Part shown: one piece after another, positions 455 to 3,569 of the stretch
Position numbering within the stretch: the stretch's first letter is position 1
Layout: every line of letters begins with the position of its first letter
NCBI GenBank assembly: GCA_964016885.1
Contig: OZ024744.1
Location: 19,530,001-19,594,000, forward strand
DNA length: 64,000 bases
Origin: Eledone cirrhosa
Lineage: Eukaryota
Reading direction: 5' to 3'
Position numbers and translations under genes: made by a program
The notes under the pieces: model-generated
The model's database searches: none
What the model saw: the letters and a program-made list of their open reading frames with translations, nothing else
Told to the model about the DNA's origin: nothing

Positions 455-572
455 ATACACATCCCATCTTCTTCCATTCGAATTAGAAGCTATGAACTTA
501 GCAAGTGAATGATAAACAAGCAAATTATAAACGTAAACATGTAAGTATGTTTTTGAAACGGTGCGCGAGTTT

Positions 573-593
573 GAAATTAGAAATTAGAAATTA
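573..593 (+). repeat. (GAAATTA)3 heptamer sub-repeat in each monomer
   Basis: GAAATTAGAAATTAGAAATTA is directly visible. It is reduced to one unit in the 276-bp monomers, and the region is 7 bp shorter near 60190. Confidence 0.95.
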
Positions 594-661
594 TAAGCTT
601 TCACCGGATTTTAGACTAAAGAAATGTATAGCTTGATAGTGGGGTTTATAACCCTAGGAGA

Positions 662-768
662 AATGGAAAAAGATGAGTGTTGCCATACCTGGGAGTCGAA
701 CCCACATCTTTGGTTATCCAGACCACTGTGCTACCATTACACCAATACACATCCCATCTCCTTCCATT
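662..768 (-). repeat. Imperfect inverted repeat enclosing the tRNA-like element (arms 662-680 and 749-768; one per monomer)
   Basis: Arm 1 (+) is AATGGAAAAAGATGAG-TGT; the reverse complement of arm 2 is AATGGAAGGAGATGGGATGT. They differ by three A/G substitutions and one extra base. Confidence 0.85.
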
Positions 769-3569
769 CGAATTAGAAGCTATGAACTTAGCAAGTGAAT
801 GATAAACAAGCAAATTATAAACGTAAACATGTAAGTATGTTTTTGAAACGGTGCGCTCGTTTGAAACTAGAAATTAGAAATTATAAGCTTTCACCGTATT
901 TTAGACTGAAGAAATTTATAGCGTGATAGTGGGGATTATAACCCTCGGAGAAATGGAAAAAGATGAGTGTTGCCATACATGGGAGTCGAACCCACATATT
1001 TGGTTATCCAGACCACTGTGCTACCATTACACCAATACACATCCCATCTCCTTCCATTCGAATTAGAAACTATGAACTTAGCAAGTGAATGATAAACAAG
1101 CACATTATAAACGTAAACATGTAAGTATGTTTTTGAAACGGTGCGCTCGTTTGAAACTAGAAATTAGAAATTATAAGCTTTCACCGTATTTTAGACTAAA
1201 GAAATTTATAGCTTGATAGTGGGGATTATAACCCTCGGAGAAATGGAAAAAAGATGAGTGTTGCCATACATGGGAGTCGAACCCACATATTTGGTTATCC
1301 AGACCACTGTGCTACCATTACACCAATACACATCCCATCTTCTTCCATTCGAATTAGAAGCTATGAACTTAGCAAGTGAATGATAAACAAGCAAATTATA
1401 AACGTAAACATGTAAGTATGTTTTTGAAACGGTGCGCGAGTTTGAAATTAGAAATTAGAAATTATAAGCTTTCACCGGATTTTAGACTAAAGAAATGTAT
1501 AGCTTGATAGTGGGGTTTATAACCCAAGGAGAAATGGAAAAAGATGAGTGTTGCCATACCTGGGAGTCGAACCTACATATATTGTTATCCAGACCATTGT
1601 GCTACCATTACACCAATACACATCCCATCTCCTTCCATTCGAATTAGAAGCTATGAACTTAGCAAGTGAATGATAAACAAACAAATTATAAACGTAAACA
1701 TGTAAGTATGTATTTGAAACGGTGCGCTCGTTTGAAATTAGAAATTAGAAATTATAAGCTTTCACCGTATTTTAGAATAAAGAAATTTATAGCTTGATAG
1801 TGGGGTTTATAACCCTCGGAGAAATGGAAAAAAGATGAGTGTTGCCATACATGGGAGTTGAACCCATATATTTGGTTATCCAGACCACTGTGCTACCATT
1901 ACACCAATACACGTCCCATCTCCTTCCATTCGAATTAGAAGCTATGAACTTAGCAAGTGTATGAAAAACAAGCAAATTATAAACGCAAACATGTAAGTAT
2001 GTATTTGAAACGGTGCGCTCGTTTGAAATTAAAAATTAGAAATTATAAGCTCTCACCGTATTTTAGAATAAAGAAATTTATAGCTTGATAGTGGGGTTTA
2101 TAACCCTCGGAGAAATGGAAAAAAGATGAGTGTTGCCATACATGGGAGTCGAACCCACATATTTGGTTATCCAGACCACTGTGCTACCATTACACCAATA
2201 CACATCCCATCTCCTTCCATTCGAATTAGAAGCTATGAACTTAGCAAGTGAATGATAAACAAGCAAATTATAAACGTAAACATGTAAGTATGTTTTTGAA
2301 ACGGTGCGCTCGTTTGAAACTAGAAATTAGAAATTATAAGCTTTCACCGTATTTTAGACTGAAGAAATTTATAGCGTGATAGTGGGGATTATAACCCTCG
2401 GAGAAATGGAAAAAGATGAGTGTTGCCATACATGGGAGTCGAACCCACATATTTGGTTATCCAGACCACTGTGCTACCATTACACCAATACACATCCCAT
2501 CTCCTTCCATTCGAATTAGAAACTATGAACTTAGCAAGTGAATGATAAACAAGCACATTATAAACGTAAACATGTAAGTATGTTTTTGAAACGGTGCGCT
2601 CGTTTGAAACTAGAAATTAGAAATTATAAGCTTTCACCGTATTTTAGACTAAAGAAATTTATAGCTTGATAGTGGGGATTATAACCCTCGGAGAAATTGA
2701 AAAAGATGAGTGTTGCCATACATGGGAGTCGAACCCACATATATTGTTATCCAGACCACTGTCCTACCATTAGACCAATACACATCCCATCTCCTTCCAT
2801 TCGAATTAGAAGCTATGAACTGAGCAAGTGAATGATAGACAAGCAAATTATAAACGTAAACATGTAAGTATCTTTTTGAAACGGTGCACGAGTTTGAAAT
2901 TATAAGCTTTCACCGTATTTTAGACTAAAGAAATGTATAGCTTGATAGTGGGGTTTATAACCCTAGGAGAAATGGAAAAAGATGAGTGTTGCCATACCTG
3001 GGAGTCGAACCCACATCTTTGGTTATCCAGACCACTGTCCTACCATTAGACCAATACACATCCCATCTCCTTCCATTCGAATTAGAAGCTATGAACTTAG
3101 CAAGTGAATGATAAACAAGCAAATTATAAACGTAAACATGTAAGTATGTTTTTGAAACGGTGCGCTCGTTTGAAATTAGAAATTAGAAATTATAAGCTTT
3201 CACCGTATGTTAGACTAAAGATATTTATATCTTGATAGTTGGGTTTATAACCCTCGGAGAAATGGAAAAAGATGAGTGTTGCCATACCTGGGAGTCGAAC
3301 CCACATATTTGGTTATCCAGACCACTGTGCTACCATTACACTAATACACATCCCATCTCCTTCCATTCGAATTAGAAGCTATGAACTTAGCAAGTGAATG
3401 ATAAACAAGCTAATTATAAACGTAAACATGTAAGTATGTGTTTGAAACGGTGCGCGAGTTTGAAATTAGAAATTAGAAATTATAAGCTTTCACCGTATTT
3501 TAGACTAAAGAAATTTATAGCTTGATAGTGGGGATTATAACCCTCGGAGAAATGGAAAAAGATGAGTGT

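Follow-up and report, generated by a model that had tools for sequence, protein, structure and literature searches.

A tRNA-carrying repeat with Penelope-like insertion ends and its satellite array in Eledone cirrhosa

Penelope-like elements (PLEs) leave characteristic insertions, described as 5'-truncated partial tandems that frequently include an inverted 5'-truncated copy, bear a 30-40-bp tail at one end and occupy (TA)n targets (PMC8557442). The tail has been linked to two start sites of the reverse transcriptase (RT) (PMC11167929). PLEs include non-autonomous members (PMC8557442), and the known non-autonomous partners either carry hammerheads, as retrozymes and Schistosoma repeats do, or resemble the pLTR of their driver. 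For example, MRC1 and other non-autonomous Chlamys elements are non-coding and occur as head-to-tail multicopy insertions with inverted 5' parts, a tail at one end and microsatellite targets, and their 3' ends are generally similar to those of an autonomous family; Naiad and Chlamys elements are also described as lacking hammerheads (PMC8557442). Metazoan non-LTR retrozymes, for which PLE dependence has been proposed, are few-hundred-base tandem units found as anything from monomers to large arrays, and their defining feature is a type I hammerhead in every unit (PMC7229834; bioRxiv 10.64898/2026.07.22.740005). The Sm-alpha and Sj-alpha tandem repeats of Schistosoma have an internal Pol III promoter and self-cleave by a hammerhead, multimeric transcripts being the mobile form (PMC6765202). 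The passage from a dispersed tRNA-related retroposon to a tandem array is known from squamate SINE-derived satellites (PMC10702118) and bivalve tandem SINE arrays (PMC11481361), in which the parents are LINE-dependent SINEs and the arrays are modest. Thousands of tRNA-derived loci have been reported in a squid genome (PMC6962438).

A 290-bp unit of Eledone cirrhosa resembles each of these systems in part. It shares the organisation of MRC1 and the Chlamys elements, but has only a weak 3'-end match to an autonomous family, and it contains an internal tRNA gene and a closing stem, which the available text of PMC8557442 does not describe for MRC1/Chlamys-type PLEs. Unlike the non-LTR retrozymes, it has a whole tRNA-like cloverleaf in place of the hammerhead, and unlike Sm-alpha and Sj-alpha, for which the available text of PMC6765202 does not mention a closing stem, it has such a stem and no hammerhead was found in it. 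In contrast to the squamate and bivalve arrays, its ends are of PLE type and its array may reach about 950 units. We consider it probable that the 290-bp unit is a non-autonomous PLE passenger that carries a tRNA but no ribozyme, was dispersed in PLE fashion in trans and has here been amplified as a satellite. No tRNA-bearing, ribozyme-less PLE passenger was found in the open-licence literature; Repbase and Dfam, which lay outside that search, may already name the family.

The 290-bp array and its tRNA-like body

The window, by which we mean the whole stretch of 64,000 nucleotides analysed, is occupied from 1 to 64000 by one tandem array of the 290-bp unit on the minus strand, with 221 copies, in agreement with the roughly 220 counted in an earlier note on this DNA. 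The full array spans C28:19,440,624-19,716,546, or ~276 kb (~950 units if uninterrupted), in a genome of 3.0 Gb whose tRNA-Gln genes appear animal-like and whose repeats seem to resemble those of cephalopods. Its monomers in the window show a weak five-unit periodicity and include eight 275-bp deletion units, and the mean pairwise divergence of the tRNA region is 4.9% (120 copies). The features of one copy, in window coordinates, are as follows.

582-871, minus strand: single monomer, subfamily A (array type), of a putative dispersed non-coding retroelement
749-768, minus strand: 5' arm (leader) of the closing stem; A752 is bulged, and in subfamily A the positions 751-749 are paired to the trailer
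681-751, minus strand: tRNA-like cloverleaf, acceptor pairs 1-72 and 2-71 broken, variable loop of 4 nt
734-744, minus strand: A box / D arm
715-721, minus strand: anticodon loop, GGA with a non-canonical U37
692-702, minus strand: B box
662-680, minus strand: 3' arm (trailer) of the closing stem
667-671, minus strand: T5 run, Pol III terminator, within the 3' arm; the sole run of at least four T on the RNA strand of the monomer
512-592, minus strand: 3' tail of the tRNA copy at 681-751; onto it map the short 3' ends of dispersed copies, at ~592, 583 and 576, and their long end, at ~512

The Rfam model RF00005 matched this copy at 689-744 (tRNA positions 8-63) with 29.9 bits against a gathering threshold of 29, and tRNA was the only Rfam family above threshold. 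Both the A and the B box fit the consensus in 168 of the 221 window copies, and the T run is present in all of them (five T in 175 copies, six in 46). In the array, the T stem and anticodon stem frequently contain mismatches. At the D-stem pair G12-C23, 111/221 copies have C-G and 109 have G-C, with one mismatch. Genome-wide, the swapped pair gave 270 matches, of which 269 lie on the array strand and one in a separate array; the 99 matches listed are all inside the large array. The separate array (L035, C1:131,459,100-131,466,000) is 6.9 kb long, consists of older subfamily-B units and contains a G-G intermediate together with one C-G version of this pair. The swap favours constraint, but it may also represent one or two events spread by homogenisation.

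A host tRNA-Gln as the parent tRNA was rejected, because only the D arm is in common (42-47/71 positions). A viral homologue was likewise rejected: 27 viral contigs matched the D-arm motif by construction, the best agreeing at 54/71 positions, and no homologue was found among them. Genuine tRNA-Gln/tRNA-Thr gene clusters lie at C1:168.21-168.28 Mb, C1:243.65-243.68 Mb and, as motif matches only, C6:47.25-47.30 Mb.

At its left end (L013:2-628), which is the RNA-3' end, the array does not have a canonical element end and touches a Helitron-like ORF (Helraiser match, E 3.8e-4), which it cuts off. A broken PLE RT/GIY-YIG fragment lies ~3 kb further left. The right end (L016) is the RNA-5' end and stops at the A box beside (TA)n, as some dispersed copies do. 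Relative to dispersed A copies, the array differs by three substitutions, two of them fixed in 221/221 window copies and one present in 214/221. The array-type motif has 791 matches in the genome. Among the matches listed, seven lie before contig C28, comprising five unrelated sites and the two arms of one inverted insertion of another subfamily; there is thus no sign, among these matches, that the array seeded new dispersed insertions. Homogenisation over 276 kb, array-specific substitutions and a dispersed parent element are together the marks of a retroposon-derived satellite, and by sequence comparison the 221 window copies stem from one subfamily of a dispersed retroelement that expanded into a satellite.

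The closing stem and its variation

The stem is as the earlier note had described it: in the minus-strand RNA, 768-749 and 680-662 form 19 bp, three of them G·U, and a single A is bulged. RNAfold gave -34.5 kcal/mol for 662-768 on the minus strand (z -2.38, 2/200 shuffles equal or better) and -21.5 kcal/mol on the plus strand (z -1.41). The leader/trailer duplex (25 nt each) has -22.8 kcal/mol, reached by none of 2000 composition shuffles and by only 18/2000 shuffles that preserve the purine/pyrimidine pattern, a control that had been named as a way to test the stem. The corresponding duplex of the opposite strand has -15.1 kcal/mol, reached by 82/2000 and 245/2000, respectively. The duplex ranks best among 290 like-spaced segment pairs of the monomer, and in genuine tRNA genes of the same genome the leader and trailer reach merely -2.7 to -8.1 kcal/mol (tRNA-Gln type, n=10) or -4.1 to -8.5 kcal/mol (tRNA-Thr, n=3). 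The closing stem is non-random. When whole monomers were folded as circles, subfamily A was unremarkable (z -0.4 and -0.3), and a single B monomer reached a modest z of -2.7 (40 shuffles).

Leader-trailer stems with a purine-rich leader and a U-rich trailer are also described in eukaryotic pre-tRNAs, where extensive pairing inhibits RNase P (PMC9705548). Blocking of RNase P, a role already suggested for this stem, is plausible by that analogy. Unlike the pre-tRNA stems, the present one comprises 17-19 bp, continues beyond the terminator and is much stronger than those of host tRNA genes.

Within the window, 19 stem pairs are retained in 141/221 copies, 18 in 63 and 17 in 17. Distinct variant pairs break the stem in 12 cases and preserve it in three, and one variant, found in 3/221 copies (470, 1340 and 52846), turns a G·U into A-U. 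The fraction of variable columns is 0.26 and 0.40 in the arms and 0.32 and 0.41 in the spacers.

The dispersed copies extend this comparison to other subfamilies. Subfamily B, which is dispersed, has a unit of 260 bp, all seven acceptor pairs and a 17-bp closing stem after a 3-nt bulge; its acceptor, T and closing stems hold six or seven G·U on the RNA strand and no A·C. In subfamily A, the 5' strand of the acceptor is rearranged, the pairs 1-72 and 2-71 are lost and the closing stem is extended inward. Among these related, unrooted subfamilies, the broken acceptor appears to be a derived trait of subfamily A. The leader of one subfamily C copy differs from the reverse complement of its trailer at 2/17 positions. 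The same end structure is seen in a further subfamily of the element that is older and has diverged more (L208/L209, L220-L224). One sequencing run (X1) contained both A and B types, and another (X4) three low-depth contigs only, too few for use as a second species.

We aligned the stem in 39 copies of three subfamilies, namely 35 of the 38 distinct dispersed full units and 4 of the 221 window copies; these were picked by the A box, so that D-stem invariance is there by construction. A two-sided change was found in 0/17 closing-stem pairs of these copies, and the covariation score of 0.066, compared with 0.072 in shuffles, gives no covariation support for selection. Leader changes opposite the T run are mostly A/G and keep the pairing, and a central U to C change breaks one pair in subfamily C and in 20/39 dispersed A copies. 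For A-to-I editing as a source of the G·U pairs, post-insertion spectra showed no A>G excess in the leader, and G·U cannot separate A>G from C>U.

Pol III transcription stops at a T run such as T5. The outer five stem pairs would therefore exist only in DNA or in read-through RNA, because a Pol III transcript ends at T5. Cut there, the stem keeps ~11-12 bp, which 281 (A) or 558 (B) of 2000 purine/pyrimidine-preserving shuffles match. T5 should also stop Pol III before the tail, which leaves the source of the transposing RNA unexplained. Its position inside the arm fits an origin by inverted duplication and a role, if any, in a long transposition template. The terminal stem and the tRNA-like module or A/B boxes recall bacterial YrlA and Y RNAs and adenoviral VA RNA, in which the U tail follows a completed stem. 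In the present unit the T run lies mid-arm, and no Rfam match to those families was obtained.

Dispersed copies and their insertion ends

Exact genome-wide searches gave 1,767 matches to the A-box motif (554 forward, 1,213 reverse) and 4,954 to the tail motif (2,221 and 2,733), with no match to either reversed control; from the strand excess, these searches suggest about 1,100 A-box and 4,400 tail matches outside the array. The insertion set was built from the loci of the 100 A-box matches listed and of the first 30 tail matches, plus four further loci; almost all lie on contig C1. It comprises 98 distinct clusters, of which three represent a single locus that has been duplicated. With the tRNA strand as sense, 66/98 clusters have 3' ends on both outer sides and are inverted internally. 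Another 31 are direct and 5'-truncated, their 3' end being fixed and their 5' ends scattered, and one is mixed. Counted from the tRNA start, the 3' ends fall into one group at ~160-176 and another at ~201-216 (B) or 240 (A). A short and a long end occur together in 54 of the 66 two-3'-ended clusters, with a stagger of ~35-46 nt in B and ~64 nt in A. TA repeats adjoin 134/164 3' ends and 24/32 5' ends, compared with 2,414/15,389 background 20-mers (15.7%). Except for the 6.9-kb array L035, insertions measure at most 1.2 kb. Paired outward 3' ends with partial tandems, a tail at one end and a microsatellite target bias, all typical of PLE insertions, were thus found. A classical tRNA-derived SINE was rejected despite the A and B boxes, because sequence upstream of the tRNA is included and two staggered 3' ends are present.

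The orientation of the ends is evidence of past germ-line copying of RNA from the tRNA strand, and it independently points to the minus strand as the RNA strand, as had been assumed from the pairing and the boxes. Judged from these ends, the copied RNA extended beyond the tRNA by 90-170 nt and frequently started within the preceding unit; it is not a 90-110-nt molecule. Divergence within and between insertions is 0.043 versus 0.077 in A and 0.052 versus 0.079 in B. In a test of rolling-circle copying, private variants were shared by the copies of an insertion at only 6/21 and 5/35 loci. The direct copies L149, L158, L162, L182 and L046, as well as the right end of the array (L016), have a truncated 5' end that lies no more than about 8 nt from the tRNA start. 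Pol III initiation or RNase P cleavage at this place may be the reason, or else (TA)n/(TG)n microhomology.

Rfam scans found no ribozyme at E up to 10 in the window or up to 5 at six loci. Hammerhead core motif searches found none in the unit, and five matches in the genome compared with one in the control, one of the five being an inversion junction. A hammerhead reading of the GAAAGC motif was rejected, as GAAA is GATA in subfamily C. PLE coding sequence is abundant in the genome. A search for a driver PLE among 30 + 20 GIY-YIG loci and 58 hammerhead-bearing ends by BLAST, tail profile and local alignment yielded nothing firm; the long PLE ORFs compared carried a C-terminal GIY-YIG, Naiad-type elements being left out. 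The tail profile had no significant match outside its own family. The best local match to the 3' end of a PLE family (z ~3.4 among 116 comparisons) is a weak lead. The 3' end of a hammerhead-bearing PLE family (L107, L110, L113, L139) weakly aligns with the subfamily-B tail and has a similarly placed short end; this family is a candidate driver, the match being non-significant after multiple testing.

A second dispersed element of ~1.73 kb (L132, L134-L142; L198-L201; for example C1:420,766,010) has an inverted repeat of ~175 bp, one arm of which is internal and the other at the 3' end. The tRNA-like gene that it carries is near-perfect (RF00005, 53-71 bits), with an anticodon drifting among GGC, GAC, AGC, GGT and GTC. 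The leader and trailer of this gene pair with -18 kcal/mol, reached by 8-9/2000 shuffles and by 25-47/2000 of those preserving the purine/pyrimidine pattern. Because this second, unrelated mobile element also has a closing stem, mobile DNA may have taken up stem-locked tRNAs repeatedly.

Origin and meaning of the element

The retroelement origin may stand while the stem is a selectively neutral remnant of a single inversion and the array a plain satellite without functional RNA, a reading that we regard as nearly as probable as its opposite. It is favoured by the lack of two-sided stem changes among the 39 aligned copies, the excess of breaking over preserving variants in the window, the similar variability of arms and spacers, and the absence, among the matches listed, of recognisable dispersed copies seeded by the array; three G·U on one strand have, taken alone, a chance of 1 in 8. 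In contrast, a mere relic accounts poorly for the six or seven G·U and zero A·C of subfamily B, for the presence of the stem throughout A, B and C, for its lengthening in subfamily A while acceptor pairs went, and for the compensatory D-stem swap, seen in half of the window copies and once in another array. The opposite extreme would be an array retained as a cluster of genes whose product, an abundant Pol III tRNA mimic of ~95-110 nt, serves the host; we consider this unlikely. The good promoter boxes in most copies, the terminator in every copy, the D-stem pair with its single mismatch intermediate and a stem far stronger than in genuine pre-tRNAs are what such a cluster would have. However, the terminator shortens the stem to the level of purine/pyrimidine controls, stem mismatches are frequent in the array, the double D-stem change is nearly confined to the array and may be one homogenised event, and Rfam recognises a tRNA only. 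The stand-alone family of novel 90-110-nt non-coding RNAs proposed in the earlier note is likewise not borne out, since the copies appear to be the satellite of a dispersed retroelement, T5 lies within the 3' arm and none of the 17 pairs covaries.

ARAGORN called 27 of the 221 copies tRNA-Ser(GGA) and RF00005 scores reach 49.7 bits in dispersed B copies, but a functional or recently functional tRNA-Ser GGA gene cluster is extremely improbable: genuine tRNA genes score 70-75 bits, the acceptor that has seven pairs in subfamily B is broken in the array, position 37 is U, and the anticodon is GGA or CGA by sub-lineage, one dispersed sub-lineage having CGA with G33. Moreover, tRNA-Ser normally has a long variable arm, and the one here is short for a Ser anticodon. 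Spread at the DNA level, by a Helitron/Helentron or as a foldback element, would bypass RNA altogether. Such elements can have tandem units and inverted arms, and a Helitron-like ORF adjoins the array, but we disfavour this mode as distinctly unlikely because the ends are staggered instead of forming equal terminal repeats, fixed 3' ends are combined with scattered 5' ends, and no common Helitron flank was seen in the dispersed copies inspected.

The tRNA-carrying PLE passenger that we prefer would work as follows. The RT/endonuclease of a PLE would copy minus-strand read-through RNA in trans, the A and B boxes supplying a Pol III promoter, or host Pol II transcripts being used. Transposition would be restricted to RNA that passes T5 and hence carries the tail, and the full stem would form in that RNA. 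The leader arm probably originated by inverted duplication of the trailer, such as PLE integration produces, and the stem was likely kept because leader-trailer pairing would, by analogy with pre-tRNAs, shield the cloverleaf from RNase P and RNase Z cutting the transposition template. The ~95-nt Pol III RNA with its 11-12-bp stem would be a by-product. In the array, one insertion likely expanded to a satellite by DNA-level amplification. Against this explanation speak the weak match to a driver PLE, the 0/17 covarying pairs, the position of T5 before the tail and the non-canonical 3' end of the array. A bolder version, which we hold to be doubtful, takes the element as a ribozyme-less counterpart of retrozymes, that is a PLE-dependent 'SINE' whose tRNA promoter is stem-locked against RNase P/Z, in an array selected to express a processing-resistant tRNA-mimic RNA.

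The element is likely selfish and not a new host RNA gene, and on present evidence no new class of host non-coding RNA is added. Arrays of this kind inflate tRNA gene counts through false tRNA-Ser calls. If the PLE passenger reading is true, PLEs, like LINEs, can mobilise Pol III-type elements; the unit would then offer a short natural template for how a PLE RT chooses its two start sites, as well as a clean case of a retroposon turned into a 276-kb satellite.
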